DNA from: an uncultured Gemmatimonadales bacterium
GTDB lineage: Bacteria; Gemmatimonadota; Gemmatimonadetes; Gemmatimonadales; GWC2-71-9
Assembly (NCBI GenBank): GCA_963796635.1
Contig: CAWCMH010000001.1
Span: 2,660,209 to 2,724,208, forward strand
DNA: 64,000 nucleotides
Direction of reading: 5' to 3'
Below are positions 27,999 to 45,209 of the stretch, in pieces (within the stretch, counting starts at the first letter, position 1; each line of letters begins with the position of its first letter). Made by a program: the position numbers and the translations under genes. A model generated the notes under the pieces. That model was not told the origin of the DNA and searched no databases. It saw nothing but the letters and a program-made list of their open reading frames with translations.

Positions 27999-28889
27999 AT
28001 GCAATACCGCCGCCTCGGCCGGAGCGGTATCCCGGTGTCGGTGATCGGCATCGGCACCTGGCAACTGGGCGGCGAGTGGGGCCATCAATTCACGCAGGAC
28101 GAAGCCGACGCGATTCTCGACGCCGGCGCCGATTGCGGCATCGACCTGATCGACACGGCAGAATGTTATGGCGACCACCTGTCGGAGCGGCTGGTGGGCG
28201 ACTATCTGGCGCGGCGCGACCGGTCGCGCTGGGTCGTGGCCACCAAGTTCGGCCACGAGTTCGAGGGCTTCCTCAAGCGTCGCGACGATTTTTCGGTCGA
28301 CGGCGTGCGCCGTCAACTCGAAGCATCGCTGCGGGCGTTGCGGGTCGATTGCATCGACCTGTACCAGTTCCATTCCGGGCCCGATCGCGCCTTCGCCGAC
28401 GATGCATTGTGGTCGATGCTCGATACGCAGCGTCGGGCCGGCAAGGTGCGCGCGCTGGGAGCGTCCCTCAACAAGACGACCACCGCGCAAGCCGACTGGG
28501 CGGCCCAGCGCGGCGTCGATGTCATCCAGGTGGTGTACAACCGGATCGATCGCGCCGCGGAAACGGTGCACTTTCCGTTTGCCGAACGCGACAACCTCGG
28601 TGTGCTGGCGCGCGTGCCGCTGGCGAGTGGATTGCTGTCGGGAAAATACGGCCCGGATGCGCACTTCCCTGCCGACGACGTGCGCGCACGGTGGTCCGTC
28701 GAGACGCTGCAGCGCCAGCTCGATGCCGTGGCGGAGGTCCGGCGCAGCGAAGTCCCGGCGGGTACCGCGATGGCGCCGTGGGCGATTGCGTGGTGTCTCC
28801 GGCATCCCCGGGTGACCGCGGTGATTCCCGGATGTCGCACCGCAGCGCAGGTGCGCGACAACGCGGCGGCGGTGGCCTTGATGGAGTGA
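27999..28889 (+). CDS. Aldo/keto reductase
   Basis: MQYRRLGRSGIPVSVIGIGTWQLGG, IDTAECYG, VVATKFGH and IPGCRTAAQVRDNA motifs. The track ORF from 27294 is an out-of-frame extension. Confidence 0.85.
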   Translation: MQYRRLGRSGIPVSVIGIGTWQLGGEWGHQFTQDEADAILDAGADCGIDLIDTAECYGDHLSERLVGDYLARRDRSRWVVATKFGHEFEGFLKRRDDFSVDGVRRQLEASLRALRVDCIDLYQFHSGPDRAFADDALWSMLDTQRRAGKVRALGASLNKTTTAQADWAAQRGVDVIQVVYNRIDRAAETVHFPFAERDNLGVLARVPLASGLLSGKYGPDAHFPADDVRARWSVETLQRQLDAVAEVRRSEVPAGTAMAPWAIAWCLRHPRVTAVIPGCRTAAQVRDNAAAVALME

Positions 28890-28924: not shown

Positions 28925-29068
28925 CTCGATCACCGTCTCCGCCGGTCGCGCCGGTGTTGCCAAGCGACGCACGAGCCGGCGCGTGACGCGAATGCCTTCG
29001 GCGCGGCACCACGCCATCACGTCGCGCGCAATGGCACGCTGCGACAGCGTGGCGGCGGCGTCCGGCAT
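28925..29068 (-). pseudogene. 3'-truncated third copy of the 95-aa module gene
   Basis: MPDAAATLSQRAIARDVMAWCRAEGIRVTRRLVRRLATPARPAETVIE matches the first half of the 95-aa proteins at 31472-31759 and 33663-33950. Homology stops near 28925, about 35 nt from the aldo/keto reductase stop, and the frame then runs into antisense of that gene. Confidence 0.6.
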
Positions 29069-29784
29069 GCATCACGTCCCGTACACGCTTGCGCGGTGTC
29101 GCGCAGGGCATACGTCGGCGGCTCGTCGGGGCCGTGATACTGCACGACCCCATTCCGCCGCAGCGCTTCCGATTCCCCGTCCGCCTCGGCGCGCACGCGC
29201 GCGAGATACGGATCAACCCACGGGCCGGTGTACCGCGGCACTGTGACGGGATCATTGCGACGCGGTGGTGACACTGGCGGCTCCGGTCCCCACGGATACT
29301 GCAGCGGCGCGTGTGGCCGCCGCCAACTCGATGGCACCGAGCGCCGCAAGGGGGGCCGGCCCCAGCCGGGGAGCTCGAGACCAGTGGCGAGGCGGTGCGC
29401 GTCGGGTGTCTTCGCTGTCGCGCTCGGCGCGGAGTGTTCGACCGGATCCTTCGGTCGCCGCCGCCCGATGCGGAAGCCCACCGCGCCGGTTTCCAGTGCC
29501 AGATGCAGCGTACGCAGCTGCTTCAGGACCTTGGCCAGCGCGTCGACATCCAGATGTGCATACGCCGCGACGCCGTCCCGCTCCAGGGCCGCGCCCACCT
29601 GCTGCGCGGCCCAGGTCGCGGGGAGGGCTTCCACCAACCGCGCTGCGCCCGCGTGTGCAACTGCCAGGCACGAGTGAGGCGGGCGGGGTCGTGATTGTTG
29701 GTCATCGCAAATCCCGTGTCTAATCCCGAACGGCGCGGATGTCGCCGTTCGGGTAGCTTGATCTGGTTCCGCTACGCTGGCCAC
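29017..29784 (-). CDS. PGWGRP-motif module protein, paralog 1 (probably degenerating)
   Basis: The C-terminal GLELPGWGRPPLRRSVPSSWRRPHAPLQYPWGPEPPVSPPRRNDPVTVPRYTGPWVDPYLARVRAEADGESEALRRNGVVQYHGPDEPPTYALRD is conserved with the other two paralogs. Where the paralogs have a stop codon (TAA in the 33983 copy) this copy has CAA, giving a read-through tail. A paralog-like N-terminus (MTNNHDPARL, from 29705) sits in another frame. Confidence 0.45.
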   Translation of the reverse strand: MASVAEPDQATRTATSAPFGIRHGICDDQQSRPRPPHSCLAVAHAGAARLVEALPATWAAQQVGAALERDGVAAYAHLDVDALAKVLKQLRTLHLALETGAVGFRIGRRRPKDPVEHSAPSATAKTPDAHRLATGLELPGWGRPPLRRSVPSSWRRPHAPLQYPWGPEPPVSPPRRNDPVTVPRYTGPWVDPYLARVRAEADGESEALRRNGVVQYHGPDEPPTYALRDTAQACTGRDACRTPPPRCRSVPLRAT

Positions 29785-29805
29785 ATGGCTGCGCCGCCAC
29801 GCTGT

Positions 29806-30327
29806 TCAGTCCCACAGCAGCAGCAACGAACTGCTTGCGAGTGGATCGCCGTGTTGATCGAACAGGGTAATTCGGACGCCGGTGGGTGCCTTCACGTCGG
29901 GTACGGCGTACCGAGCGAATAACGCTCCTGGCGACAATACCGCTACGACGTACCCACCAGCCCAACGGGCCAGATTCTCAATGGACAAGGTGCGCTCGCT
30001 GACGGTGACGTAGCTCCCGGGACGGTTATCGCCACCGCCCCCTGCTTCCTTCGGGATAGGCGAAACGAATACCTCTTCACGAACTCTACCAACGAATCGG
30101 CTTGGTAATCCGAACGCAGCTACCTGGACAGTATCCGAATCATCGTTTTGCGACCATTCCGAATCGGGTGGCGGGTTGACCTCGTGTTGCCCTAGGAGCA
30201 GTCGAGGAAAAAACTGCACCATAACGTGTTCCGGATAACCGGCCCGCGATCCAATCGGTGCGCGTGTGCGTTCACAGGACGCTCCGCTAGACACGCAGGC
30301 GATGAGCAAGAGGATGCGATATTTCAT
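29806..30327 (-). CDS. Lipoprotein, putative immunity protein for the orphan LAS/M15-like toxin
   Basis: MKYRILLLIACVSSG lipobox. Its ATG overlaps the toxin stop (ATGA at 30324-30327). Visibly more A/T-rich than the flanks. Confidence 0.6.
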   Translation of the reverse strand: MKYRILLLIACVSSGASCERTRAPIGSRAGYPEHVMVQFFPRLLLGQHEVNPPPDSEWSQNDDSDTVQVAAFGLPSRFVGRVREEVFVSPIPKEAGGGGDNRPGSYVTVSERTLSIENLARWAGGYVVAVLSPGALFARYAVPDVKAPTGVRITLFDQHGDPLASSSLLLLWD

Positions 30328-31475
30328 GGCCACGCCAAGTGAATGTGATTCATGTGTTCGGCACGCAGCGGGTTGTTGACGATCGGCAGCGGACCTCGAC
30401 CGTTTTCGTATTTTCCAGCAGGACCCAGGTCTCCCCCGACCGCACGAAGTCCGCCCAGAGAATTGGCGACGGCTTGGACTCGTCCCGCGATTGCACCCAT
30501 GCCGGGGTTCGTGTGCCGGCCGTTGCCAATGTCCCTGCCGTTAATCCAACCGATGTCGGCTGCTAGCCCTTGCGCGTGGGCGCTCGACAGATGATGACCG
30601 TTTGTGGTCGCGTTTAGACCCAGATCGACATCGGCGGCGTCGGCAACTGCTTGCAAATGGGCCAACGTACTCCGTCGAAGCCCCGCGAGCGAAGCGCCTA
30701 ACACGCGGCCTTCAGGGCTGATCGTTACCTGACAGGCCCTCGGCTTGCCACTTGGATCTTCACAGGCCGCCAACCCCACCGGATCCCGGAAGCTATTGGG
30801 ATCATTCCCGTTGTACTCGTACAGATTGGTGCCGCCCGCCAGACCCGCGTGATCCTCCTGCAGCCAGCTCCCCGTGGCCGGATCATACTGCCGGGTTCGG
30901 AAACTCGAGATGGCACTCGTCGTATCCGTCGCCAGCCGGCGCGGGTCGAACGTCTGCGCCCGCTGCGTGATCCCGCTGGTCGCCCACGTGCCGCTCGCAT
31001 ACGTCGACGGGTTCTCGTACACATTGTTGTACGTCCCCGCCGAGTCCGCGATCGACACCAGCTGGCCCATCCCATCGGACACCAGCGACAATCGGGCCTG
31101 CGCCAGCTTCGTGTCGCCCACCCGCTTGATCGCCACCAGCGGCTCGTCGAGCCCGGGGGCGTACACGTAAAACCACCCCAGCTGCGGCGCCCGGATGGCG
31201 TCGTGGCCCAGGAGCGAGAACGGTGCGCCGCCGCAGCCCTGATACATCCGGCCGTCGGGATCGTAGCTGCAGCTGTTGGGCGCCGTGTTCAGGTTGTGCG
31301 TATAGCCCACCATCCGGCCGGCGCCGTCGTACTCGAACCCATTCACGTTCGTGAACGTGGCGTTGTAGTCGTCGCGCCGGGCACCATCGCGATCGTACTC
31401 GTAATACTGCGACGCCGTGCCGGCACCGACCAGCGTCCCGAGATCCGGTGATTCGCGCCACGGCGTACCTGTCAC
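30324..31475 (-). CDS. Orphan RHS C-terminal fragment (core tip + LAS/peptidase-M15-like toxin domain)
   Basis: Residues from TLVGAGT to [10 protein letters not shown] are near-identical to the main RHS protein. After DPVG a unique domain carries SAHAQGLAAD (SxHxxGxAxD) and EHMNHIHLAW (HxH), as in LAS-fold peptidoglycan peptidases. Confidence 0.8.
   Translation of the reverse strand: MTGTPWRESPDLGTLVGAGTASQYYEYDRDGARRDDYNATFTNVNGFEYDGAGRMVGYTHNLNTAPNSCSYDPDGRMYQGCGGAPFSLLGHDAIRAPQLGWFYVYAPGLDEPLVAIKRVGDTKLAQARLSLVSDGMGQLVSIADSAGTYNNVYENPSTYASGTWATSGITQRAQTFDPRRLATDTTSAISSFRTRQYDPATGSWLQEDHAGLAGGTNLYEYNGNDPNSFRDPVGLAACEDPSGKPRACQVTISPEGRVLGASLAGLRRSTLAHLQAVADAADVDLGLNATTNGHHLSSAHAQGLAADIGWINGRDIGNGRHTNPGMGAIAGRVQAVANSLGGLRAVGGDLGPAGKYENGRGPLPIVNNPLRAEHMNHIHLAWP
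30774..31437. repeat. rhs core-tip repeat (copy in orphan 1), 664 bp near-identical to 36304-36967
   Basis: Direct reading of the aligned sequence. Identity starts at ccccaccggatcccggaagc (the DPVG codons) and ends at caccgaccagcgtc. Confidence 0.9.
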
Positions 31476-31759
31476 CCCGTCTCGATCACCCGCGCGATGG
31501 CCGCCACTACCTGCACGACGTCACCCGCCTGGTACGACCACGTCGCTGTCCGATGCGGCATCCGCACCTCGACATGCTCCGTGTACACGGCGACCACGGT
31601 GTCATCGAGTTCCAGTTCGATCACCGTCTCCGCGGGCCGCACCGGCGCCGCCAGTCGACGCACGAGCCGGCACGTGACGCCAATCCCCTCGGCCCGGCAC
31701 CACGCCATCACATCGCGCGCGATGGCGCGCTGCGACAACGTGGCGGCGTCGTCCAGCAT
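31472..31759 (-). CDS. 95-aa module protein (unknown function), copy A
   Basis: High GC3. Differs from the copy at 33663-33950 at only a few residues. Its stop overlaps the orphan rhs GTG start (GTGA). Confidence 0.65.
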   Translation of the reverse strand: MLDDAATLSQRAIARDVMAWCRAEGIGVTCRLVRRLAAPVRPAETVIELELDDTVVAVYTEHVEVRMPHRTATWSYQAGDVVQVVAAIARVIETG

Positions 31760-31779
31760 GCATCAAGTGCCGCGCACGC

Positions 31780-32355
31780 TTACACGTTGTCGCGCAGGGC
31801 ATACGTCGGCGGCGCATCCGGGCCGTGATACTGCACCTCGCCGTGCCGTCGCAGCGCTTCCAATTCCCCGTCCGCCTCGGCGCGCACGCGCGCGAGCCAG
31901 GGATCAACCCAGTACGGGCCCGTGTACCGCGGCACCGTGACAGGATCACTGCGACGCGGCGGTGAGACCGGTGGCTCTGGTCCCCACGGGTACCGCAGCG
32001 GCGCGTGCGGGCGCCGCCAACTCGATGGCACCGAGCGCCGCAAGGACGGCCGGCCCCAGCCGGGGAGACCGGGACCGGACGCCTGATGGTGCACGCGCGG
32101 TGCGGGCGCTGGCAGCGTCGCTGCCGCCAGCCCCGTGTTGATCTTCCCGTTGCGACCCACGCCGAGCGCGCGAGCCAGGCGGTCGACTTCGTGGAGCAAA
32201 CCTCGAAAGCCGGTGAAATCGTTGTGGGCGATGTATCCCGTCGCACGGCGGCGCCACGCCCGTTCCAGGGGCTGCACGGCGGCGAGCCGCGGCAACGCTT
32301 CCAGCAGCATGCGCAACCGGTCGTCGAGTTTCAGGATGTCGTAGTTGAAGGGCAT
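31780..32355 (-). CDS. PGWGRP-motif module protein, paralog 2 (full length, 191 aa)
   Basis: High GC3. Variable N-terminal half (..HEVDRLARALGVGRNGKINTGLAA..) and conserved Pro/Trp/Arg-rich C-terminal half. 20 nt upstream of the 95-aa gene. Confidence 0.6.
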   Translation of the reverse strand: MPFNYDILKLDDRLRMLLEALPRLAAVQPLERAWRRRATGYIAHNDFTGFRGLLHEVDRLARALGVGRNGKINTGLAAATLPAPAPRVHHQASGPGLPGWGRPSLRRSVPSSWRRPHAPLRYPWGPEPPVSPPRRSDPVTVPRYTGPYWVDPWLARVRAEADGELEALRRHGEVQYHGPDAPPTYALRDNV

Positions 32356-32588
32356 GGTTCACCTCGGTTTCTTCTCGAGATCAGTTGCACTCGGCACAGC
32401 AGCGCTGGCGGCGTTACCGCCGCCACCGCCGTGTTGGTGTGTCCATTGCGGCCCACGTCCGGCGTGCAGGCCGTTGCATCCACTTCCTCGGCAACGCGAG
32501 GAACTCTGCCTCGTCGCGCTGCCGTTCGTACGCCGTCACCCCCGGCCTCGTCATGCGATTCGCCGAGTCCACGCAGGCAGTGCATCAA
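32331..32588 (-). other. Diverged N-terminal fragment of a PGWGRP-family gene
   Basis: EEVDATACTPDVGRNGHTNTAVAA aligns with HEVDRLARALGVGRNGKINTGLAA of the full-length paralog. Lies between the DUF2283-like gene and paralog 2. Coding status is uncertain. Confidence 0.35.
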
Positions 32589-32824
32589 TGGAATTCCACC
32601 ATCCGGACGACGCCATCGCGGTCGACATCGAGGATGACCATGAGGCCGTTGACTGATTCGAATACCGTCGAGTTCAATCCAACATCGGCGGTCGTCGACA
32701 CAGCTCCCTCAGCGATTACAATTCGCAGCGAGACGTCGGCCGGCGTGCGCCCGTCAAAATCCGTTTGGTACCGTGGACTGGCTTCGACAAGCTTGATTAA
32801 ATCTTCGAGCAGGATTCTTGCCAT
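32585..32824 (-). CDS. DUF2283-like small protein, putative immunity/antitoxin for orphan 2
   Basis: 79 aa ending LMVILDVDRDGVVRMVEFH, like the DUF2283 C-terminal strand pair. GAGG lies 5 nt upstream of its ATG and 8 nt after the toxin stop. Confidence 0.65.
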   Translation of the reverse strand: MARILLEDLIKLVEASPRYQTDFDGRTPADVSLRIVIAEGAVSTTADVGLNSTVFESVNGLMVILDVDRDGVVRMVEFH

Positions 32825-32832
32825 GGCAACCT

Positions 32833-33666
32833 CTAAGGAATTGGAGTCCAGCGCGGAGCACCGTCGAACAACGTTTCCGGGATAAATGTCATCTTTATGC
32901 TGGTGACGACGTTCGTGCTGGTAGCGTCGGTCACCACGTAGAGATCCTTACCGCTGGCCATGCCACCGCGAATTACATGCGCGATAGTGCCAGGATGTTT
33001 CGCATCCATGTATTTCTCGCCAACCCGAATAGCAGCCTTGGACATATCGGCCGATATCCCACGCTCCGCGTTGTCGACGGCTTGATGTCGACTTATACTG
33101 ACTGCGGCGTCGGTCGCTTCAACGGCATCGCCCACGGCGGATGTCAAGAGGCCCACGGCCCCAGAAACCAAAACGAGGATAGGGTCGTTGCCAGCTGAAA
33201 CTGGCCTGATCTCTCCGGGATCAGGATGGATTACATGCTTTGCACAGTCTGGACAATCGTCAGGCTGCAGACCCACCGGATCCCGGAAGCTATTGGGATC
33301 ATTCCCGTTGTACTCGTACAGATTGGTGCCGCCCGCCAGACCCGCGTGATCCTCCTGCAGCCAGCTCCCCGTGGCCGGATCATACTGCCGGGTTCGGAAA
33401 CTCGAGATGGCACTCGTCGTATCCGTCGCCAGCCGGCGCGGGTCGAACGTCTGCGCCCGCTGCGTGATCCCGCTGGTCGCCCACGTGCCGCTCGCATACG
33501 TCGACGGGTTCTCGTACACATTGTTGTACGTCCCCGCCGAGTCCGCGATCGACACCAGCTGGCCCATCCCATCGGACACCAGCGACAATCGGGCCTGCGC
33601 CAGCTTCGTGTCGCCCACCCGCTTGATCGCCACCAGCGGTTCGTCGAGCCCGGGGGCGCCGATCAC
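32833..33666 (-). CDS. Orphan RHS C-terminal fragment (short core tip + DUF4258-like toxin domain)
   Basis: [16 protein letters not shown]...[10 protein letters not shown] is identical to the main RHS tip. The unique tail contains SRHQAVDNAERGISADMSKAAI...LYVVTDATSTNVVTS, resembling the DUF4258 pattern (H.A..R...RgIs...v). Confidence 0.75.
   Translation of the reverse strand: MIGAPGLDEPLVAIKRVGDTKLAQARLSLVSDGMGQLVSIADSAGTYNNVYENPSTYASGTWATSGITQRAQTFDPRRLATDTTSAISSFRTRQYDPATGSWLQEDHAGLAGGTNLYEYNGNDPNSFRDPVGLQPDDCPDCAKHVIHPDPGEIRPVSAGNDPILVLVSGAVGLLTSAVGDAVEATDAAVSISRHQAVDNAERGISADMSKAAIRVGEKYMDAKHPGTIAHVIRGGMASGKDLYVVTDATSTNVVTSIKMTFIPETLFDGAPRWTPIP
33272..33658. repeat. rhs core-tip repeat (copy in orphan 2), 387 bp near-identical to 36305-36691
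   Basis: Direct reading. Same DPVG-side boundary as the other copies; the upstream boundary is at cccgggggcg. Confidence 0.9.
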
Positions 33667-33950
33667 CCCGTCTCGATCACCCGCGCGATGGCCGCCACTA
33701 CCTGCACGACGTCACCCGCCTGGTACGACCACGTCGCTGTCCGATGCGGCATCCGCACGTCGACATGCTCCGTGTACACGGCGACCACCGTGTCATCAAG
33801 CGCGAGCTCGATCACCGTTTCCGCGGGCCGCACCGGCGCCGCCAGTCGACGCACGAGCCGGCACGTGACGCCAATCCCCTCGGCCCGGCACCACGCCATC
33901 ACATCGCGCGCGATGGCGCGCTGCGACAGCGTGGCGGCTTCGTCCAGCAT
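33663..33950 (-). CDS. 95-aa module protein (unknown function), copy B
   Basis: Near-identical to 31472-31759. Same GTGA overlap with the downstream orphan rhs fragment. Confidence 0.65.
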   Translation of the reverse strand: MLDEAATLSQRAIARDVMAWCRAEGIGVTCRLVRRLAAPVRPAETVIELALDDTVVAVYTEHVDVRMPHRTATWSYQAGDVVQVVAAIARVIETG

Positions 33951-33982
33951 GCATCACGTCCCGTGCACTGACCAGGTGCGTC

Positions 33983-34333
33983 TTACGCGGTGTCGCGCAG
34001 GGCATACGTCGGCGGCTCATCCGGGTGACACTGCACCTCGCCATGCCGTCGCAGCGCTTCCAATTCCCCGTCCGCCTCGGCGCGTACGCGCGCGAGCCAG
34101 GGATCAACGAAACCCGGCGGACCGCTCCCGCGGGACACACAGGGATCGCTGCGACGCGCTGGCGAAACCGGCGGTTCATTGCCCCAGGGATACTGGAGCG
34201 GTGGCGCCTCGCGCGGACCGCTGTCCATCACCCGCTTGTTTCGCGCGCCGGACCGGCCCCAGCCGGGAAGGCCGGGACCAGTGGCGAGCCGATCAACCGC
34301 CTCGCGAACCCCTGAATTTATTGGGCTCATCAT
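33983..34333 (-). CDS. PGWGRP-motif module protein, paralog 3 (C-terminal part only, 116 aa)
   Basis: DRLATGPGLPGWGRS...YPWGNEPPVSPARRSDP...FVDPWLARVRAEADGELEALRRHGEVQCHPDEPPTYALRDTA. Its ATG overlaps the stop of the 171-aa gene (ATGATGA). Confidence 0.5.
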   Translation of the reverse strand: MMSPINSGVREAVDRLATGPGLPGWGRSGARNKRVMDSGPREAPPLQYPWGNEPPVSPARRSDPCVSRGSGPPGFVDPWLARVRAEADGELEALRRHGEVQCHPDEPPTYALRDTA

Positions 34334-34845
34334 AAGAGATGATATTCATGTCGCCGGATCGCGCGCTGCCAAGCCGACTTACAATGCCGCAAGTCCGCGA
34401 ACGAAGCGGACGGCTGTATATCGCCAGCCCAGTGTTGCAACCCCGATCCCGATTCCACGTAGGCGACGTTCTTGAGGGCCTCGTAGCATAGTATCCCGAC
34501 AAGTACGCGTTGTCCGCCGATCGTAGCACGAGCTCGCACCGGCCTGTCCAAGCACTCCACCAACTCCCTGACAGCTCGATCTCCGAAGGGCGCGATCGTC
34601 CGAAAGAGGCGCCGGTTACCGTCGAAGCGCCATGTACGGGCCGGTTGCGGCACGAAGGTGCCTGTGAGGGTATCCAGTTGTCGGACCAGCCAAGTCAACG
34701 AGTCAAGTCGAGCGCGTTCGCCACCTCCACTCACGACAACGCGATGCTCAACTTGCAGGCCTACGGTCACTGGCACGGTCTGAGCCGCCGCGAACAGCGC
34801 GGCCCAGAGGCACAACGGCAATTGTGGCGTGCTCAAGATTAGCAT
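34330..34845 (-). CDS. Secreted 171-aa protein (signal peptide), possible second immunity protein
   Basis: MLILSTPQLPLCLWAALFAAAQT signal peptide. GAGGAG upstream of the ATG. A/T-richer than the genome. Sits between the N- and C-terminal parts of a PGWGRP-family gene. Confidence 0.55.
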   Translation of the reverse strand: MLILSTPQLPLCLWAALFAAAQTVPVTVGLQVEHRVVVSGGGERARLDSLTWLVRQLDTLTGTFVPQPARTWRFDGNRRLFRTIAPFGDRAVRELVECLDRPVRARATIGGQRVLVGILCYEALKNVAYVESGSGLQHWAGDIQPSASFADLRHCKSAWQRAIRRHEYHLL

Positions 34846-34857
34846 GTTCTCAACTCC

Positions 34858-35061
34858 TCAGTGACATGACATCACTGCATAGTGGACGTGACTCCGATGT
34901 TCTAACATCAGGTCGCGCAAACGCTGGTCCGCCGCCAGCCCTGTGTTGACCTTTCCATTGCGGCCCATGTCCAACGCGCGGGCCACCGACTCGACTTCTT
35001 CGGACGTGCCGTTCGTCGTGGTGCTTATCCCCCGTGTCGAAATCCGTTGCCATCGCGCCAC
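34858..35061 (-). other. N-terminal fragment of a PGWGRP-family gene (67-aa ORF)
   Basis: EEVESVARALDMGRNGKVNTGLAA aligns with paralog 2 residues around GRNGKINTGLAA, then diverges and stops. The 5' part is overlapped by the lipoprotein gene end. Confidence 0.35.
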
Positions 35062-35828
35062 TTCGCGCTTCCACTCGAGCTCTCATGAACCGGCGTACGC
35101 GCCGGTCGCATTCGGTCTGCACCCGCCAATTGCGCGGCCCTATGCTCTAGACCGTCGATTGCCTGTAGCATGTCGCCGTTACAGCGTGCAGCCGGTGTGT
35201 GTCCGGCGCGCAACGCTTGCGCCAGTGCATTTGCACTGGCGCGATATACTGTTGACAAGCTGTCGTAAAACCTCGCGCCGGCAGCGGCGTCTTGCGCAAA
35301 AGCTCCATCAGGACCTTGGAATAGCACACGCTCCCAAGTCAGGTGATATGCGTGTACGCAAGGAGCGGCGGCGGCGTCTCCGCGACATTCGCCCCGACCG
35401 ATCGCACCGGCCAAGTGCTCAATGATGTCAATTCGACCATCACGGTTGACGTCACGGAGCTCCGGGAGCGCGCATGTACCCAGACCGGACTCGTATCGCT
35501 TGCTAACAGAGTCATGCAGGTCCAGAAGCAGCTCGGCGCTCAGCATCTCCTCAAAGTCGACCGTAACCCAGAGATCGGGCAGCGAGTCGTTGTTGGCAAA
35601 CAAAAGGCGGGCCGACGGCACGACAATCGCGCTGCCAGTAGACCACAACAACAATCGTCTGGCCGGGCTTGAGCGAAACCATTCCAAACGTCGTTCGGGA
35701 GTCTGAGCCACAACCACAGTATCCTGGCCCAGAGCCGTGACGACTGTGCCAAGCGGCGTCTGATCCGATCGTGGCGACGGCCGTCCGCACCCGAGAATGA
35801 CGAGAGTTGCGGCCAGAATCGTTCTCAT
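35025..35828 (-). CDS. Lipoprotein, putative immunity protein for the M23-like RHS toxin
   Basis: MRTILAATLVILGCG lipobox from the ATG at 35828. TAGGAGAAAGCACATG gives a strong SD 10 nt after the RHS stop. A/T-richer than the genome. Confidence 0.65.
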   Translation of the reverse strand: MRTILAATLVILGCGRPSPRSDQTPLGTVVTALGQDTVVVAQTPERRLEWFRSSPARRLLLWSTGSAIVVPSARLLFANNDSLPDLWVTVDFEEMLSAELLLDLHDSVSKRYESGLGTCALPELRDVNRDGRIDIIEHLAGAIGRGECRGDAAAAPCVHAYHLTWERVLFQGPDGAFAQDAAAGARFYDSLSTVYRASANALAQALRAGHTPAARCNGDMLQAIDGLEHRAAQLAGADRMRPARTPVHESSSGSAKWRDGNGFRHGG

Positions 35829-35838
35829 GTGCTTTCTC

Positions 35839-38800
35839 CTATGGCTGATCGACGTAAACGACAGGACCATACCCACTCAAGGAGCCGGCCACCACTACTG
35901 TTCCCGATATGGCTGCGTGAACCGGGGTACCAATTTGACTGCGGATGTCGATGCCTTGGTGTGTCCCGTACACTCCAGTAACGGGGTTCACGCGCGGCCC
36001 AAACGGGGACGTCACGTACTCGTTGCCCGAAATGGGATTCGTTCCGTGAATCCGTTGTAGCTCAATTTGTGGATCGACCGGCGTGCTTTGCCCATTCGCG
36101 AGCGCCGAACCGGCAACATTTATCACGCGTGTCTCGAAATGCAGGTGCGGTCCCGTCGAGCGCTCGCCACCTTCAGCGCCGCCACTCAATCCAATGACGT
36201 CGCCTTGATGAACCCGTTCGCCCTCATGCACGCAGATCTTTGAGAGATGACCGTATCGAGTCTGGACCCGCACGCTGTCATCATCAGGACTGTCTGGACA
36301 CGTCCCCACCGGATCCCGGAAGCTATTGGGATCATTCCCGTTGTACTCGTACAGATTGGTGCCGCCCGCCAGACCCGCGTGATCCTCCTGCAGCCAGCTC
36401 CCCGTGGCCGGATCATACTGCCGCGTCCGGAAGCTGGAGATGGCACTCGTCGTATCCGTCGCCAGCCGGCGCGGGTCGAACGTCTGCGCCCGCTGCGTGA
36501 TCCCGCTGGTCGCCCACGTGCCGCTCGCATACGTCGACGGGTTCTCGTACACATTGTTGTACGTCCCCGCCGAGTCCGCGATCGACACCAGCTGGCCCAT
36601 CCCATCGGACACCAGCGACAATCGGGCCTGCGCCAGCTTCGTGTCGCCCACCCGCTTGATCGCCACCAGCGGTTCGTCGAGCCCGGGGGCGTACACGTAA
36701 AACCACCCCAGCTGCGGCGCCCGGATGGCGTCGTGGCCCAGGAGCGAGAACGGTGCGCCGCCGCAGCCCTGATACATCCGGCCGTCGGGATCGTAGCCGC
36801 AGCTGTTCGGCGCCGTGTTCAAGTTGTGCGTATAGCCCACCATCCGGCCGGCGCCGTCGTACTCGAACCCGTTGACGTTCGTGAACGTGGCGTTGTAGTC
36901 GTCGCGCCGGGCGCCATCGCGATCGTACTCGTAATACAGCGACGACGTGCCCGCACCGACCAGCGTCGTGCGCGTCGAGTCGACGCGGTTGCTCGCCGCC
37001 GGATAGAACAGCGTCGTCAGCGTCGTGGCGAGTCCGTGACTGTTGTCGCCCGTGCGGTCGCCCGAGGCGTTGTAGCTGAAGGTGTCGGTCGTGGTGACGC
37101 CCGCCCGATTCATCAGCGCCTGCACGGCGATGCCGCCGGTGCGATAGTAGCGCGTCGTCGCCTCCGCGGGCATCCAGTCCCCGCAAGGATCGCCGGGGTC
37201 GCCGCCACCGTAGCTGCCTGCGCCAGTGCAATCCATCCATTGGTGCAGGACGCGGCCCATCACATCGACGCTGTCCTGCTTCAGGGCAAAGATGAACCGG
37301 TTGGGCGTGACACCCGAGGTGTTCGTCGACGACAGCTTGCGCAAGGTACCGAGACGGTCGTAGTGCGAGGTCACCGTCATGCCGTCGTACGGGTAGATGA
37401 TTTCGCGCCGACGCCCCAGTGTGTCCCAGAGAAATCGATACACTTCGCTGCGGGACCCTGCGCTCGTCGGCCACTGAGCCGCCAGGGTGTCCAGGTCACC
37501 CGTGCTGTAGTAGCTGTACGCAACGGACTCGCCGGCGCCCCACAACAGGGAATCCAGCTGGCCTTTGGCATTGTACGCCATACGCACCGAGTCGGTCACC
37601 AGCGGAGCCTCGGCGGGGAGATAGGTCGAATCGGGATAATCCGCCTCGGTGTGAATGGTGCCGTCGCTGAAGTAGGTACGCACGATCCGCCCGTGACGGT
37701 TCCGGTGTGTCAACAGATTGCCCACGATGTCGTACGTGCTCGTCACCGTGTCGGGCGGTGCGGTCAACAGTTCACCGCCGGTCGAGACGGTGTCGAACGG
37801 CATGGTCCACCGAGTCAATCGTCCAAGCGAATCGTAACGGAAGGTCAGCGTGTCGCCGAGGCGGGTCTTGCGCCACACCAACTGCCCCGTCGAGTCGTAG
37901 GTAAGCCGTTCGGCCTGCCCCGCTTCATCGGTGTCGGCGATCATCAAGCCACGCTGGTCGTAGCCGAAGCGCTGGGTGACACTGCGATAGTCCAGGACCC
38001 TGGTCAGGCGGCCCAACGTGAATTGGCGGTGAATCTGGATCGGGTGCGTGGTCAGATCATTCAGTATGGTTGGCGAGCACACGAATTCGTTGCCGAGACA
38101 GGCCGCACTGGTCGAATCGATGGTCCCATTGGCGATATCCAGCGTGTCGCGATCCATCGGGTCGTAGAAGTACGTCATCCGGAAATGCAGCGGATTGGTG
38201 ACACCCGTCACGCGACCGGCGCCGTCGCGATAGAAGAGCGTCGCACCACCAGCCGGGTTGTTGACGCGGGCGGAATTGCCGAGCGCATCGTAGCTGACGG
38301 TGGTGACCTGGTTGGTCGTGCTGTCGGCGGAAAGGCTCTGGATCCAGGTCGGCACCGACAGTTCGGTGACGCTGGTGAGCTGGCCCTCAAGCGTTCCACT
38401 GGTGTTGTAGGCATACCTGGTCGCATGCCCGCGCGGATCGAGGATCGAGTCGGTGAGCCCCATCGTGTTGTAGTGAAACTGCGTCACGGTCCCATCGGGC
38501 GCCGTGACCTGGCTCGGCGAGTCGTAGTCGTTGGCGTCGCCATAGACCCACGTGGTCACCTGCTTGGGGAACGCGCTGGTTCCCCACGCACTGTCGGTAA
38601 GCTGCGTCAGATTGCCGCGGGCATCGTATTGCATGAAGGCCTTGCGGCTGTTCGGATAATCGATCTCGCTCACCAACCCCGGTGCGTTGGCCGAGCCGCG
38701 CACATAGCTGGTGACGGTCCCGTAGGCATTCTTCTCCACAATCGGTGCGCCCCACCGGTCGACATGGAACACCGACACATGACCGCTGTTCGCCGGCGGA

Positions 38801-40626
38801 CCGTCGATCGTCGTCACCGCGTTCGCCGTGTCCGACGCACTGTAGCTGCCGCCGCCCGGCAGGCCGAATCCCGCCGCCTGCCATGCGGTGTAATTCGTGA
38901 CCGATGTCGCCGCCGCGCCATTCGACGTGTAGTACACGATCGACTGATCCACCAGCGCATCGGTGCCGTACGCCACCGCCACGGAGTCCTGCCCGCTGTA
39001 GGTCGACATCGCCAGGCGCCGGTCACCGTTGTAGGCAAAATGCATCTTCGTGCCGTCGGGCCAGACCCAGCTGGTCAACTCCGGCGTGCCGCTTACCGTG
39101 ACGGTCGTGTCGACGATGTTGCGCCCGTCGAGCCGCACTCCACTCAGCCGCCCGCTGGCATACTGCACCTTGAATGCCTTGCCGCTGCCACTGGGCGGCA
39201 ATAGCACGCTGTCCAGCTGGGTCGCGCTCGACCACGCAAAGGTCGTGATCTGTCCGGCTCGGTTCCTGGTCTGCACGTGCCGGCCCGTATTGTCGAACAG
39301 CACTTGCACCCCGTGCCGCGTCGTCAGGGTGTACTGGCTGCTCGCGTACGCGATGCTGTCCTGCCCATCGTCGGCTGCCGACATCCACTTGTTGCTCCCA
39401 TCGGCCCGGTAGAAACGTGTCGATCCGTCCCCGTCGACCCACAGAATGCCGGTCCCCGTGCCGGCGGGCTGGCTCAGCACCAGCCGCTCGACGCCAAGCC
39501 ATTCGAACCCGGCGCCGTAGGGACTCTGGTTGCGGTTGACGACCGTGCTGAGCCCGCTGATGCTGGCCGACACCGAATCACCGGACGACGCCGCATACAC
39601 CGTCAGCGTATATGGGTAGATCCCCGTCGCGGTGTTCACCGCGTTCCAGCTCAGTGCAATCTGCCGCGTGGCGTTCTTCCAGCCACCGTACTGCACAGTG
39701 GTTCGCACCGTGTCGTTCACGGTGAGCACCGCCGTGAGGTGATCCGGCACGGGGCCGAGCGGCATGCGGATGTTGGCCGTGATGACCGGCGCCGGCGCCG
39801 CGGTGTTCGACGCATACACGAGCGTCATGCTGCGATCGCGGTCCAGCGTGGTGTAACCGGGTGTCTCGAGGAAATACATCGCGTCGCCGCAGGACCAGGT
39901 GAGCGGACCGCGGCTCGTGGTGAGACAATGGCCACGATTGAAAACGGAATCGTTCTGCTGCGGTTGCGACAACACGGGCGTCGACGGCCCGGTGAATGTC
40001 ATCGCGTACCAGCCGGAGTCGCTGACCACGCCGTCGGTGGCGAAGAGCGAGATCGTGCCGGTGCCGCTCGACGCCGCGGGATAGTTGATGTCGATGTCGA
40101 CCTGCTCGTTGGGATCGAGCGAGACTTCTTCGATGTCGCTGCTGCACGACGGCACCACGCCGGAAACGTGGCAGCTGAGCGTGAACGTCCGCGTGGATGT
40201 CGTCGTGTTCTTGACGAAAAACGTCACGTCGCCGGCGGACCCGGCCCCGGCCGCGAGCGCGCTGTCATCGGGCGTGACGACCACCCATCCGATGATGAGT
40301 GGCCGCGCGGAGCCCTGGTTCGTGACGGGATTCTGCGCGCGCCCCGGCAACGGCAGGAGGGTGACGGCCGCGAAACCGGCGCACAGCGCGCCGGCTCCGA
40401 GCCGCAGGCGGGAACCCCCCGCAGCCACCGGACCGTCGGGGCGCATCGTGGATGCATCCCCGTTCCGATTCGGTCGAGCCGGCCACGGGTGGAGGGTCCG
40501 GTCGTCCAGGGGAGACAACCGGGGGAGCAGCGTCCGGTCCGGGACGGACCGGGGTGGGTGGTGGAGCGCCGCCGCCCAGCGGGCGGCGGTATCACGGGCG
40601 CGAAGCGCCAGTCCTCGGAAGTTCAT
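35839..40626 (-). CDS. RHS/YD-repeat polymorphic toxin with Sec-type signal peptide and M23-peptidase-like (permuted) C-terminal domain
   Basis: Many YD repeats ([40 protein letters not shown]). Core tip ...[16 protein letters not shown]. Signal-like [26 protein letters not shown] after the internal ATG at 40446, an alternative start. The C-terminal 150 aa carry M23 motifs. Confidence 0.9.
36304..36967. repeat. rhs core-tip segment of the full-length gene shared with both orphans
   Basis: Near-identical to 30774-31437 over its full length and to 33272-33658 over its first 387 bp, all in direct orientation. Confidence 0.9.
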
Positions 40627-40925: not shown

Positions 40926-42656
40926 CTACCGTTTCTTCTTCACCACCACCGGGGTCGCAGCGCCCGCCGTAACCGGCTGCAGTTTCGCGCGCTCCTTCAT
41001 CACCAGCCACTGCTGCGGAATCGACGTGATGTTCTGCACGGCGTAGTACAGGTTGAGCCCCGCGGCAAAGCGCGCGAAGAAGATCAGCATCATCGCCGGC
41101 ATCATGTAGGTCATCATCTTGGTCTGCGGATTGGGCGGCAGCCCCATCTGGCCGATCTTCGACACCACCAGCATCGACGCCGCCATCACCACCGGAATGA
41201 TGTACAGCGGATCGGCCCGCGCGAGATCCGGCATCCAGAGAAACGTCACGCCGCGCACTTCGATGGTGTACGCCAGCACGAAGAACACCGCAACCAGCAC
41301 CGGATACGGCAGCAGCATCGGCCAGCAGCCGCCCAGCGGATTGACCTTGTTTTCCTTGTAGATCTTGAACGTTTCCTGCTGCAGTTGCTGCGGGTTGTCC
41401 TTGTACCGGGCCTGCAGCGCGGTGAGCTGCGGCTGGATCGCCTGCATCCTTGCCATCGACCGCATCGCGATCCGGCTCAACGGCCACAGCAGGATCCGCA
41501 CGATCAACCCGAACAGCACGATCACCAGGCCGTAGCCCAGGCCGAGTGCCGTGTGCATCCAGACGAAGATGGCGCGGATGTAGACCGCAATCGGCCGGAT
41601 CATCCAGCGCAGCCACGCCCAGCCGTAGGGATTGACGTCGTCGAACCCATGTCCCATATGGCTCAGCCGGTCGTATTCCATCGGGCCCAGGTACATGGTC
41701 CAGTGGAAATTGCCGGCCGACGTGACCGCCAGCGACGCCGCCACATGCGCGCGCGTGGGCTTGCTCTGCGTGTCGGCGGCAAACGCCTGCACCCCGCCGA
41801 TGTCGCCCCGCGTGCCCTGCGCCGTCGAGTCGTAGGCGAACAGCCCGGCCACGAAATACTTGGACTTGACCGCCGCCCACTCGAACGGCCCGCTCAAGGT
41901 CGTGGCGATCCGGGGCTTGAGGCTGCGGAACAACGTGACGCTGGTCTTGTCCAGCTTGGTCACCACGCCACTGTAATTCCAGTCATCGGCGGGTGTCCAC
42001 TCGGTCGCGCGGAAGCCGTCGCCCAGGTTGACCAGCAGCGTCCCGCCGGCCGGACCCAGGCCGCCGACGTGGCCAGTGACACCGATGCGATAGTCGGTAT
42101 TCGAGAAGGTGTAGGTGAGGTCGACCGTGTAACCGCCCGACTGGCCATGCAGCGTCAACGTGGCCGGCGCATGGACGGCGCTCAACGAATCCGCGCTCGC
42201 GGTGAAATGCATCCGCGACAGTTGCAGCGAGTCGCTGCCGGTCACCAGCGTGCCGCCGAGGAGGCCGTCTCCCGGCGGCAGTAGATGGAGCGTGTCGCGG
42301 TGGTCGGCCTCGGCGAGCGATTGATAGTTCAGGAACCAGCTCGAGATGATCTGACCGCCGCGCGTCGACACGCCATAGCGATACAGCGACGACCGGATCA
42401 CCACCGTGTCGGCCGGCCCGGCGTCGCGGCTGGTATCGGTCACCATTGCGGTCGGGGTCGGCGGGAGTGCGCGCGTCGAGTCGGGCGCCGCAGCCGCCCC
42501 GGCGGGCGATGTCCCGGTCGTGTCGCGCAACCCGGCGCTATCGGCCGCCGCCGCAGCGGCGGTCTGCCGCAGCGCAGCGCGTTTCATGAAGATCGTCGGC
42601 ACCACGGCGATCAGTACGATGGCGGCGAGCGCCAGCATCAGGCGGCGGTCGTTCAT
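40926..42656 (-). CDS. yidC: Membrane protein insertase YidC
   Basis: Large periplasmic domain followed by the conserved WGWAWLRWMIRP...LWPL...MQAIQP....KYKDNPQ...E..K.YKE..VNPLGGC.P.LLQ.P core. Synteny with yidD-rnpA-rpmH. Confidence 0.9.
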   Translation of the reverse strand: MNDRRLMLALAAIVLIAVVPTIFMKRAALRQTAAAAAADSAGLRDTTGTSPAGAAAAPDSTRALPPTPTAMVTDTSRDAGPADTVVIRSSLYRYGVSTRGGQIISSWFLNYQSLAEADHRDTLHLLPPGDGLLGGTLVTGSDSLQLSRMHFTASADSLSAVHAPATLTLHGQSGGYTVDLTYTFSNTDYRIGVTGHVGGLGPAGGTLLVNLGDGFRATEWTPADDWNYSGVVTKLDKTSVTLFRSLKPRIATTLSGPFEWAAVKSKYFVAGLFAYDSTAQGTRGDIGGVQAFAADTQSKPTRAHVAASLAVTSAGNFHWTMYLGPMEYDRLSHMGHGFDDVNPYGWAWLRWMIRPIAVYIRAIFVWMHTALGLGYGLVIVLFGLIVRILLWPLSRIAMRSMARMQAIQPQLTALQARYKDNPQQLQQETFKIYKENKVNPLGGCWPMLLPYPVLVAVFFVLAYTIEVRGVTFLWMPDLARADPLYIIPVVMAASMLVVSKIGQMGLPPNPQTKMMTYMMPAMMLIFFARFAAGLNLYYAVQNITSIPQQWLVMKERAKLQPVTAGAATPVVVKKKR

Positions 42657-42671
42657 CGGTCGCTCATGCGT

Positions 42672-42902
42672 TCAAGGTACCGGATCATAGCCACCTGGAT
42701 TCCAGGGGTGGCACCGCGCCAGCCGGCGGGCGGCCAGCCAGGTGCCGCGCACCGCGCCATGACGCCGCACGGCGTCGAGCGCGTACTGCGAGCACGACGG
42801 CGTGAACCGGCACGACGGCGGCAGCATCGGCGAGATCACCAGTTGGTAGCCGCGGATCAGGCCCGCCAGCAGCGCCGACGGAAGCCGGCTCAGTCGTCGC
42901 AT
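42672..42902 (-). CDS. yidD: Membrane protein insertion efficiency factor YidD
   Basis: [35 protein letters not shown]...[16 protein letters not shown] is the YidD signature. Confidence 0.9.
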
Positions 42903-42908
42903 GCCGAT

Positions 42909-43238
42909 TCACCCCGCCCGCGCCCCGCGCCACGCGTGCAGATCCTGACGCAGCTCGTCGAAGGTTCGCTGGTACGTGACACTCCGGGCGCGCAACACCA
43001 CGTCCCAGGCCGGCATGCTCGCCTGGAGCTCGCGCCGCCAGAGCTCCTTGAGCCGGCGCCGCAACTGGTTGCGTTCGACGGCGGTGTGCCGGAACCGGGG
43101 CACGATCACACCCAGCCGCGGGTGGCCCGCGACGCTGTCGGCCCAGAAAATGTCGAGATGAGTCTCGCGGGAACTACGACCGGACGTGAGCACGCGGCGC
43201 AGATCGGCAGCGCGAACCAACCGGCGCGAGCGCGGCAA
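42909..43238 (-). CDS. rnpA: Ribonuclease P protein component
   Basis: LPRSRRLVRAADLRRVL...RLGVIVPRF.HTAVERNQLRRRLKE. Start assigned to the in-frame TTG at 43238 just after the rpmH stop (uncertain). Confidence 0.8.
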   Translation of the reverse strand: MPRSRRLVRAADLRRVLTSGRSSRETHLDIFWADSVAGHPRLGVIVPRFRHTAVERNQLRRRLKELWRRELQASMPAWDVVLRARSVTYQRTFDELRQDLHAWRGARAG

Positions 43239-43252
43239 GCGCTCGGCGCCGG

Positions 43253-43411
43253 TCAGACGCGGGCGTGCTTGGAACCGATGGACACCGTCAGCCGCTTCCG
43301 CCCCTTCTTGCGGCGACGCGACAAGACGGCCCGACCCCAACGGTCGGCCATCCGCGTCCGGAATCCGTGCTTGGCAATCCGGCGCTTGTTCCGCGGTCGG
43401 TATGTCGGCAT
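43253..43411 (-). CDS. rpmH: 50S ribosomal protein L34
   Basis: Not in the ORF track (52 aa). My translation is [52 protein letters not shown], matching the L34 consensus (..HGFR.RM....GR.VL..RR.KGRK.L). Confidence 0.85.
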
Positions 43412-43477
43412 CATCGCGGTTAACTCCCTCCTGAAGAGCCGGGCAAGCTACCGGGCTGCGCCCGGAAAGGTCAAGGT

Positions 43478-43506
43478 TTGACTTTTCCACATGCGGACCG
43501 TAGAAT
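43478..43506 (+). promoter_or_regulatory. Candidate dnaA promoter with embedded DnaA box
   Basis: TTGACT (43478-43483), 17-nt spacer, TAGAAT (43501-43506). The spacer contains TTTTCCACA (43483-43491), 8/9 match to the TTATCCACA DnaA box. 48 nt upstream of the dnaA ATG. Confidence 0.55.
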
Positions 43507-43553
43507 CGGCCTCCCGAAATCACCGCGTTCCCTGCTCCCAAGAAATCGCCACG

Positions 43554-44942: not shown

Positions 44943-44958
44943 CGCGGGTCCCCGTCGG

Positions 44959-44979
44959 GGGCGCATCGATGATGCGCCC
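44959..44979. terminator. Conserved-sequence hairpin downstream of dnaA
   Basis: gggcgcatc-gat-gatgcgccc, a 9-bp stem with no U tract. The same motif recurs at 48448, 51409 and 51458. Confidence 0.45.
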
Positions 44980-44984
44980 GGCAT

Positions 44985-45209
44985 GTGCAGGTTGTGGATC
45001 GCGATGACGTGGACGCCGTGGGTGAATGCGGAAAGCGGTGGGTAACCGGCGGCACCGTCCCCATCATCCACGGAGAGTTCACAGCGACCGCGGGCCGCAT
45101 GCCGGTGCCGTCACGCGGGTTAGCCAGCGGGTCCACATGTGCGGGCCCTCTACTACTGCTACTAGAATCAGTTAACTGGTAATGCAGGTAGTTTTTACAG
45201 CAACCTGGG
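44985..45209. other. Candidate oriC (DnaA-box-like sites plus A/T-rich unwinding element)
   Basis: TGTGGATcg (44993-45001, reverse complement cgATCCACA), TCATCCACg (45064-45072), ggGTCCACA (about 45130-45138), then the locally A/T-rich tactactgctactagaatcagttaactggtaatgcaggtagtttttac (about 45150-45198) just before dnaN. Confidence 0.5.

Follow-up and report, generated by a model that had tools for sequence, protein, structure and literature searches.

A two-gene module, made up of gene A (~190 amino acids, aa) and gene B (95 aa), is repeated between the toxin cassettes of an rhs locus in a 64,000-nucleotide (nt) stretch of DNA from an uncultured Gemmatimonadales bacterium (assembly GCA_963796635.1, contig CAWCMH010000001.1, positions 2,660,209 to 2,724,208), which we refer to as the window. 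We consider it probable, at roughly 0.6, that A-B is the conserved tail of the Sec-type rhs operon of this clade and is carried along as a passenger in each stacked cassette unit; the module would then be a passenger and boundary marker of the cassette unit rather than its engine. All coordinates are window positions, and the array is read on the minus strand, from high to low. The pair occurs in three minus-strand copies between an rhs gene of full length and two 5'-truncated cassettes, each with a C-terminal toxin region (CT) and an immunity gene; we call the copies A3-B3 (33983..34333 and 33663..33950), A2-B2 (31780..32355 and 31472..31759) and A1-B1 (29017..29784 and 28925..29068). The open reading frames (ORFs) of the pair had been listed at these positions in an original prediction made from the letters of the window; they are indeed present and their repetition is real, as is the iterated order of full-length rhs, newest CT-immunity, module, truncated core with an older CT-immunity, and module again.

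Arrays of orphan toxin-immunity pairs downstream of rhs and cdi are well known, while the way in which a cassette can be added without loss of the old immunity gene is still argued. The locus and its relatives are a clean case of cassette units that have core sequence at either end, with a readable mosaic and a junction inherited as a block; because core lies on both sides, plain homologous recombination can add such units. They also reveal two (with a third gene, C, three) narrow, selected protein families that are strictly tied to the Sec-type Rhs of Gemmatimonadales.

Place of the module in related rhs loci

The related loci are numbered L001 to L011, and genes in the immunity position are named in them by their length in aa (imm77, imm112 and imm194). 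The module forms the end of the operon in L004, L007 and L008 (rhs-CT-imm112-A-B, then a convergent gene), in L011 (rhs(Ntox21)-CdiI_N-A-C, then a convergent gene) and in L001 (rhs-CT-imm77, a core fragment-CT-imm194, then A-C-B and a hairpin terminator). Within ~15-75 nt of a terminal module there is either a hairpin terminator or the end of a convergent gene, with terminators seen in L001 and L009 only; a scan of the window for promoters and terminators gave nothing above shuffle expectation. The number of modules tracks the number of cassettes: loci with a single cassette have one terminal module, and the arrays have two or three, with L003 reading A-B, core fragment-CT-immunity, A-B, core fragment, and L009 and L010 carrying two or three A-C modules between cassettes. 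We also considered that L003 might be an assembled circle and rejected this, since its two B copies differ and it is thus a true tandem array. In L005 an A-B pair is present and the contig end cuts off the upstream sequence.

All contigs with sufficient flanking sequence have rhs next to the module, so that homologs are not found mostly away from rhs loci, and the association noted in the original prediction stands. Outside the block from rhs to module the flanks are different in each lineage, and no genes other than A plus B or C are conserved alongside this rhs family.

Core fragments and junctions

The two truncated core pieces are fragment 3, of 387 nt (33272-33658), and fragment 2, of 664 nt (30774-31437). 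Blastn against the full-length gene returned exactly the retained depths that had been proposed, 664 nt (97.9% identity) and 387 nt (99.0% identity). Both fragments are on the same strand as rhs and lead into different CTs, each followed by a small ORF, and homology among the three rhs copies stops exactly at the conserved DPxG-type core boundary before the variable CT. In its first 170 nt, fragment 2 has 9 sites (~5%) that differ from the full gene, and it is nearly identical to it afterwards; fragments 2 and 3 differ from one another at 1 site, and the full gene differs from both fragments at 4191-4203; such a mosaic is the pattern expected from crossovers inside the core. Divergence within the array is higher for the modules (synonymous divergence, dS, of 0.10 for B2-B3 and 0.67 for A2-A1, versus 1-2% for the cores), so the modules are not fresh local duplicates and must either have arrived with their cassettes or be old.

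The two junctions between B and core had been described as identical through the sequence GGGGTGA. That sequence turns out to be simply the end of B (its final codons, Gly-stop, overlapped by a GTG), and the core homology starts beyond it: 34 nt after the B2 stop (at 31437) and 4 nt after the B3 stop (at 33658), so that the two window junctions are not identical. The 34 nt of non-core sequence after the B2 stop (31438..31471) are probably the 3' untranslated end of the module, to judge by eye from an unscored likeness to the first 34 nt after B in L003. In the clade as a whole there are at least six different joins of a module or gene to core, which enter the core at window Rhs residues 1083, 1146, 1221, 1258, 1290 and 1313 and lie 4, 34, ~13 and ~121 nt after a B stop or ~10-12 nt after a C stop. 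The join in L001 falls 19 nt after imm77, where there is no module, indicating that the join follows whichever gene is last and not the module as such. The claim that a module abuts every truncated core fragment thus holds in the window (2/2) and fails in L001, which has a fragment with no module before it.

Units 1 and 2 of L010 share one colinear 1716-nt segment (82% identity) that runs through A, C, the junction and the core fragment, and the junction point ..DPCGDW.. recurs in L009 and three times in L010; together these findings indicate that the junction is inherited with the unit and not re-made at each insertion. This block inheritance of the module-core junction, combined with the mosaicism of the core, fits core-bracketed units stacked by homologous recombination.

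We also looked at whether the truncated cores might be translated by coupling to B. The GTG that overlaps the B stop is in frame with the core fragment in both window copies, and L006 has an in-frame ATG; the coupled start is out of frame in L003, and L010 has no start there. The idea was set aside because the start codons are inconsistent across loci.

A proposed route for the stacking of cassette units

We propose the following route. The basic locus would be rhs-CT-immunity-A-B followed by a terminator or a convergent gene, with relatives that end in A-C or A-C-B. A rare illegitimate join would connect the spacer after the last gene of the operon to a point inside an rhs core, giving a unit of CT-immunity-A-B flanked by core on both sides. 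Such a unit could then enter any related rhs gene through homologous recombination in the core (either as a linear double crossover or as a Campbell circle), and the resident toxin-immunity pair would be pushed downstream and kept, so that immunity to kin is retained. Repetition of these events would yield the observed series of full rhs, newest CT-immunity, module, core fragment, older CT-immunity, module, and so on.

The placement of the joins may also be explained in this way. A join further downstream would bring in the terminator and silence the orphan immunity genes, and one further upstream would destroy B or C; joins in the short spacer spare the last gene and exclude the terminator, so that the orphan immunity genes would presumably stay transcribed. 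From their position, the small ORFs that follow the CTs would neutralize the respective toxins, and imm77 and its CT vary together in L001 and L010.

Several points weigh against this account of the module as an operon tail carried by its unit. All of the related loci come from metagenomic contigs or metagenome-assembled genomes (MAGs). The argument from exclusion of the terminator is an inferred one, with terminators seen in L001 and L009 alone. Within ~120 nt of the last stop there are at least five independent joins, a clustering that could reflect a DNA end defined by some mechanism. The module is not always at the end of a complete operon, since in L006 (8597-10995) A-B stands directly before a core fragment that begins at ..TSHYDRLG.. 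(window Rhs residue ~1083), with no rhs in the 10 kb upstream; an M28 peptidase gene and genes seemingly unrelated to rhs lie there instead, in the order M28 peptidase, a 138-aa ORF, a 204-aa protein, A-B, core fragment. L006 may represent an orphan array left stranded, or else a problem in the assembly of the MAG. Two further features are left unaccounted for if the module is a passenger: the purifying selection on A, B and C (described below), which means that they have some function that this account does not name, and the 5' half of A, which appears to be a recurrent recombination breakpoint.

Evidence for and against a mobility role

The original prediction had gone further and proposed the module as a candidate cassette-mobility system; an active capture or mobility system of this kind would mark the 3' end of a [core fragment-CT-immunity-module] element and promote its excision, circularization or integration. 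Some observations suit such a system: the association with rhs sequence is strict, in four independent arrays (those of the window, L003, L009 and L010) the module recurs between the cassettes, the left ends of the junctions cluster tightly after the last module gene while the right ends scatter across the core, and L006 has a module and a core fragment without an upstream rhs. We nevertheless find the proposal very unlikely. Neither A nor B has a recombinase, transposase or nuclease signature, or a fold or family of recombinases, nucleases or DNA-binding proteins, and searches of Pfam, NCBIfam, PHROG, PADLOC and the PDB returned no tyrosine or serine recombinase and no DDE or HUH transposase for either; no notable inverted repeats or attC-like hairpins were seen at the module boundaries, and the junction sequences are not identical. 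Moreover, the orphan core fragment of L001 was formed without a module, the junction was inherited as a block in L010 and not re-created, two of the window's three A copies are damaged, and the pair has no matches among the viral contigs and plasmids that were searched. A machine for mobility, recombination or maintenance is thus not borne out, with no enzyme-like fold, no defined ends and a module-less fragment in L001, and an active mobility role of the A and B proteins is not supported.

The iterated order had been taken as the scar of repeated single crossovers of a circular element. The architecture and the core mosaicism do fit repeated recombination in the core; the circle is not required, because Campbell insertion of a circle and a linear double crossover with core on both sides are topologically equivalent and either fits the array.

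There remains the reading that A-B (or A-C) is a dedicated partner of Rhs arrays, either as a unit-end or capture factor or as a keeper of the expression or stability of silent orphan cassettes. In the capture version, a basic, disordered, DNA- or RNA-binding A together with acidic B or C would mark the 3' end of the unit and promote additive capture. We regard the reading in either form as improbable; if true, it would give the first conserved non-recombinase factor tied to the stacking of polymorphic-toxin cassettes.

Coding status and decay of the module copies

The array region has a G+C content of 65-72%, at which long spurious ORFs are common, so that every frame needed checking. Both the A and the B frames are coding, as seen in their composition, codon-position changes and ratios of non-synonymous to synonymous divergence (dN/dS). 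Across the three codon positions, A2 has G+C fractions of 0.75/0.56/0.81 and B2 of 0.73/0.49/0.87, similar to the flanking aldo/keto reductase gene (0.72/0.49/0.81). Differences between copies are most frequent at third positions, and by codon position they number 4/10/23 between the A C-termini of copies 1 and 2, and 1/1/8 between B2 and B3, in which 3 codons are non-synonymous. The dN/dS values are 0.15-0.39 for B (0.15 for B2 versus B3) and 0.24-0.60 for A; A, B and C are under purifying selection by this measure, and relatives at ~30% identity align across the full length of the module proteins.

In the DNA, the repetition is seen as a set of repeats. Repeat D2 occupies 28926-29220, 31617-31911 and 33808-34102 (the latter two 87% and 61% identical to the first), D3 occupies 31446-31745 and 33637-33936 (93% identity), and D4 occupies 29220-29417 and 31914-32111 (83% identity). 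A three-way DNA alignment shows homology from mid-A (at 'GLPGWGR') through the B stop codon.

The copies are unequally preserved. B2 and B3 are both intact and, as had been claimed, nearly identical (3 aa differences), and the third B copy is indeed cut near 28925, B1 ending after codon 48, with the stop of the convergent aldo/keto reductase gene 36 nt away. Of the three window copies of A, A2 (191 aa) alone is fully intact. A3 (116 aa) lacks the N-terminal helical domain, which is found separately at 35052-34930; its middle region might be taken for degenerate, a view that we rejected because it is an allelic variant shared with the relatives P0008 and P0010. In A1 the stop is gone (TAA to CAA), and there appears to be a frameshift close to the N-terminus, where the ORF 29523..29705 holds residues that align to the N-terminus of P0010. 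To judge from the lost stop, the frameshift and the cut in B1, the terminal module (A1-B1) is decaying.

Remnants of the N-terminal half of A were seen just upstream of A copies in the window (32385-32495 and 34930-35052), in L003 (1878-2018) and in L011 (4333-4416). The two in the window are both minus-strand members of repeat family D5. One, at 34930..35052, corresponds to A2 residues 34-78 with the motif GRNGKVNTGLAA (tblastn E=8e-7) and is contained in a 67-aa ORF (34858-35061); the other, at 32385..32495, just upstream of A2, corresponds to A2 residues 53-89 (tblastn E=0.004).

Rarity of the module proteins

Relatives of the module proteins are few. Among 5.8 billion clustered proteins we found 6 relatives of B and 4 of A; an exhaustive profile search with B over 1.84 billion representatives gave about six real clusters (a count that leaves out the long proteins P0015, P0017 and P0018, which match as several short stretches), and a profile search with A gave 13 proteins. 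The named sources of these relatives are Gemmatimonadales MAGs. On the evidence of these searches, A and B are very narrow families confined to Gemmatimonadales, with no known relatives.

Proteins A and B and the exchangeable partner

The model of A has an N-terminal three-helix bundle (predicted local distance difference test, pLDDT, ~80-89) and is poor outside residues 5-63; residues 71-147, modeled at low confidence without regular structure, are read here as a disordered linker. The linker is rich in Pro, Arg and Trp, with the conserved motifs GLPGWGR and HAPLxYPWGxEPP, and is followed by a C-terminal helix. The isoelectric point (pI) of A is 9.3-11.3 in 9/10 copies (10.7 in A2), with that of L004 at 7.8 and the truncated A3 at 6.7. 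B is a small acidic alpha/beta protein (AlphaFold2 model, pLDDT 85) with a helix, five strands and a helix; its pI is 5.2-5.7 in most copies (5.3 in B2) and 6.9 in L001, and B and C together range from 4.6 to 5.7 apart from the L001 B. In L006, B is without most of its C-terminal helix. Neither A nor B has a signal peptide or an evident catalytic motif, and we take the module proteins to be small, cytoplasmic and non-enzymatic.

Family searches with A and B, as single sequences and member by member, gave zero matches in Pfam, NCBIfam, PADLOC and PHROGs, and profile searches against PDB sequences gave none. In particular, no Pfam or NCBIfam profile for VgrG, PAAR, EagR/DUF1795 or DUF4123 matches either protein; these profile searches agree with the original prediction, which had recognized no such signature and no integrase or transposase. 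Foldseek comparison of the models likewise found no confident match to an immunity or housekeeping family, or of any other kind: B had nothing significant in the PDB (best E=0.07), A only generic three-helix bundles (E>2), and in BFVD the matches of B were borderline and to uncharacterized phage proteins only. One of these borderline matches, to a 'Lsm C-terminal' entry (E=0.011, template modeling score 0.54-0.60), makes an Sm-like (Hfq/Lsm) fold possible for B, going by the predicted model; Hfq/Sm entries were absent among the 50 PDB matches listed.

The place of B may be taken by another gene. C encodes a 73-aa acidic protein directly after A in L009, L010 and L011, where B is absent from that position, and L001 has the order A-C-B, with C before B (copies of C are at 8234-8452 in L001; 10622-10843 and 12827-13048 in L009; 4866-5087, 10594-10815 and 13954-14175 in L010; and 5562-5783 in L011). 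C is 39% identical to imm77 (E=4e-10), the 77-aa gene that comes immediately behind the main toxin of L001 and L010, and the toxins that precede imm77 in these two genomes are 78% identical; since the same CT stands before it in both, imm77 behaves as a cognate immunity gene. By homology, then, C is a paralog of a cognate immunity gene. Relatedness between B and C was not detectable (hhalign probability 0.2%), and B has no match to polymorphic-toxin immunity families, whereas C (which is absent from the window) has the homology to imm77 given above. As A may be followed by B, C or both, and C belongs to an immunity family, the slot after A takes exchangeable small acidic proteins. We also tried the idea that A is a decayed copy of the toxin paired with imm77 and rejected it, blastp giving only E>0.5 between the two.

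As our best guess, A would be bound by its acidic partner (B or C) in an immunity- or antitoxin-type pair that serves the Rhs system. A step further lies the suggestion that A-B (or A-C) is a toxin-immunity or toxin-antitoxin (TA) pair in its own right, with a basic effector or addiction protein A and an acidic neutralizer, which rides at each cassette's end and contributes to the stability of the locus. A gene for a basic protein with one for a small acidic protein behind it follows the grammar of toxin-immunity pairs, C is paralogous to the immunity gene of a cognate cassette, the partner slot is exchangeable (B, C or both), and A is built like an antitoxin, with folded N-terminal helices and a long disordered region bearing conserved motifs. 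Yet A has no enzyme-like fold and is never fused to Rhs or another delivery domain among its 13 relatives, there is no TA or immunity family match for A or B, and single members occur: A without an intact B (window unit 1) and C without an intact A (L009 C0 and L010 unit 3), although other copies in the array could complement an unpaired A or C. We therefore think a self-standing pair of this kind rather unlikely, while ranking it above the other rivals of the operon-tail reading.

Alternatively, A, B and C might be accessory factors of the Sec-type Rhs, such as a chaperone or a regulator of export, toxin loading or operon expression, with the extra copies as redundant passengers. That A and B or C are the sole genes conserved with this rhs family while the flanks vary, that they are under purifying selection, and that one copy stays intact while extras decay would all be in keeping with such a role. 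The known Rhs accessory genes lie upstream, however, and belong to recognizable families (EagR/DUF1795, DUF4123, PAAR, VgrG), none of which was detected; the exchangeability of B and C speaks against a fixed chaperone role; and the first cassette of L001 and an orphan immunity gene of L009 are without a module of their own. On balance we give this reading little credence.

A, B and C are thus best regarded as probable operon-tail passengers that are at the same time candidates for an unrecognized function of an accessory, regulatory or immunity-like kind. As ordinary passengers they would add modestly to what is known of Rhs arrays; their importance would grow sharply only if a part in cassette capture or in the expression of silent cassettes were shown for the proteins.

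Other features of the window and of related loci

The full-length rhs gene (35839..40626, minus strand) encodes 1595 aa, starts with a Sec-type signal-like N-terminus, contains RHS repeats (Pfam RHS_repeat, E=5.8e-19) and ends, within the same coordinates, in a Peptidase_M23-type toxin (Pfam Peptidase_M23, E=4.5e-20). Within this toxin domain (35839-36300, the last ~150 aa) an HxH-type motif (..GPHLHFE..) precedes an HxxxD-type motif (..THQGIDI..), and the domain is matched in Pfam as two separate stretches, residues 1454-1501 corresponding to profile positions 45-89; the seemingly swapped halves suggest a circular permutation or a partial duplication. Directly upstream of rhs lie yidC, rnpA, dnaA and dnaN (40926-46328), so that the toxin array adjoins the chromosomal replication origin region.

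The other genes of the array are also on the minus strand. A 283-aa gene with a signal-peptide-like N-terminus (35025..35876) is in the immunity position of the current toxin; its homolog in L009 (11286-12038, 39% identity, E=1e-45) is an orphan that lies between two A-C modules and has no toxin fragment. A gene for a 171-aa signal-peptide protein (34330..34845), located between the N-terminal remnant of A and A3, has a stop that overlaps the A3 start (ATGA); the protein has no family match in Pfam or NCBIfam, and its position suggests that it is probably an orphan immunity gene. The middle cassette consists of a 5'-truncated rhs with its unassigned CT (32833..33666; TIGR03696 Rhs_assc_core, E=1.4e-12) and a 79-aa gene (32585..32824), and the oldest cassette of a 5'-truncated rhs with a likewise unassigned CT (30324..31475, also with a TIGR03696 match) and a 175-aa lipoprotein-like gene (29806..30333); both small genes are assigned a putative immunity role from their position. 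The convergent aldo/keto reductase gene (28050..28889, plus strand; Pfam Aldo_ket_red, E=1.5e-52) forms the right-hand flank, outside the locus.

In the related loci, we observed that the main rhs of L009 (2000-5887) is split into at least four consecutive ORFs and is either a pseudogene or the product of assembly frameshift errors. L005 has two convergent small ORFs (1317-1956) just after its terminal A-B that are BrnA/BrnT-like by eye, and L010 has a Transposase_20 fragment (IS110-family C-terminal; 6773-7189) between two units, outside the module.

Comparison with known systems

To our knowledge, and among the papers that we consulted, there is no description of a conserved, selected, non-recombinase module that is reiterated between Rhs cassettes in several lineages. 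The array as such belongs with the orphan rhs-CT/rhsI and cdiA-CT/cdiI arrays that arise through C-terminal displacement (Poole et al., 2011, PMC3150448; Koskiniemi et al., 2014, PMC3967940; C-terminal displacement is also discussed in Ruhe et al., 2016, PMC4927057). The window has their defining parts, namely a full-length rhs gene with a DPxG-type boundary and, downstream on the same strand, fragments that share its core and carry different CTs. Both here and in those arrays, a full-length gene is followed by 5'-truncated fragments in the same orientation, with core homology and different toxin-immunity pairs, and the shared core permits recombination with the main gene. In the orphan arrays the intervening DNA, if there is any, consists of transposase or integrase genes or of nothing conserved, whereas here a conserved and selected two-gene module stands between cassettes and recurs in several Gemmatimonadales lineages.

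The immunity arrays of the Vibrio cholerae type VI secretion system (T6SS) arise by sequential displacement of effectors, for which homologous recombination and rare illegitimate joins, without an integrase, have been proposed as the mechanism (Kirchberger et al., 2017, PMC5361080). As in those arrays, new effector-immunity modules are added at the expressed end and older immunity genes are kept downstream. In V. cholerae, however, the old effector is lost and only immunity genes stack, whereas the present array keeps the tips of the old toxins together with a piece of core, and repeats a conserved gene, A, that is not an immunity gene.

Integrons, too, have cassettes added at one end of an ordered array with a repeated element between them, but there is no integrase, attI or attC-like imperfect hairpin here, and the repeated element is protein-coding and ~0.9 kb in length. 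Type II TA and toxin-immunity pairs resemble the module in having a basic protein (here with a folded N-terminus and a disordered tail) and a small acidic partner, and in that the partner of type C is an immunity-gene paralog; unlike them, A and B belong to no known toxin or antitoxin family and have no recognized toxic fold, so that the likeness is limited to size, charge and disorder, and A-B is never found alone away from rhs. Taken together, the building of this array follows the known picture of C-terminal displacement, with a more explicit proposed route by which units would be added and the resident toxin-immunity pairs kept.

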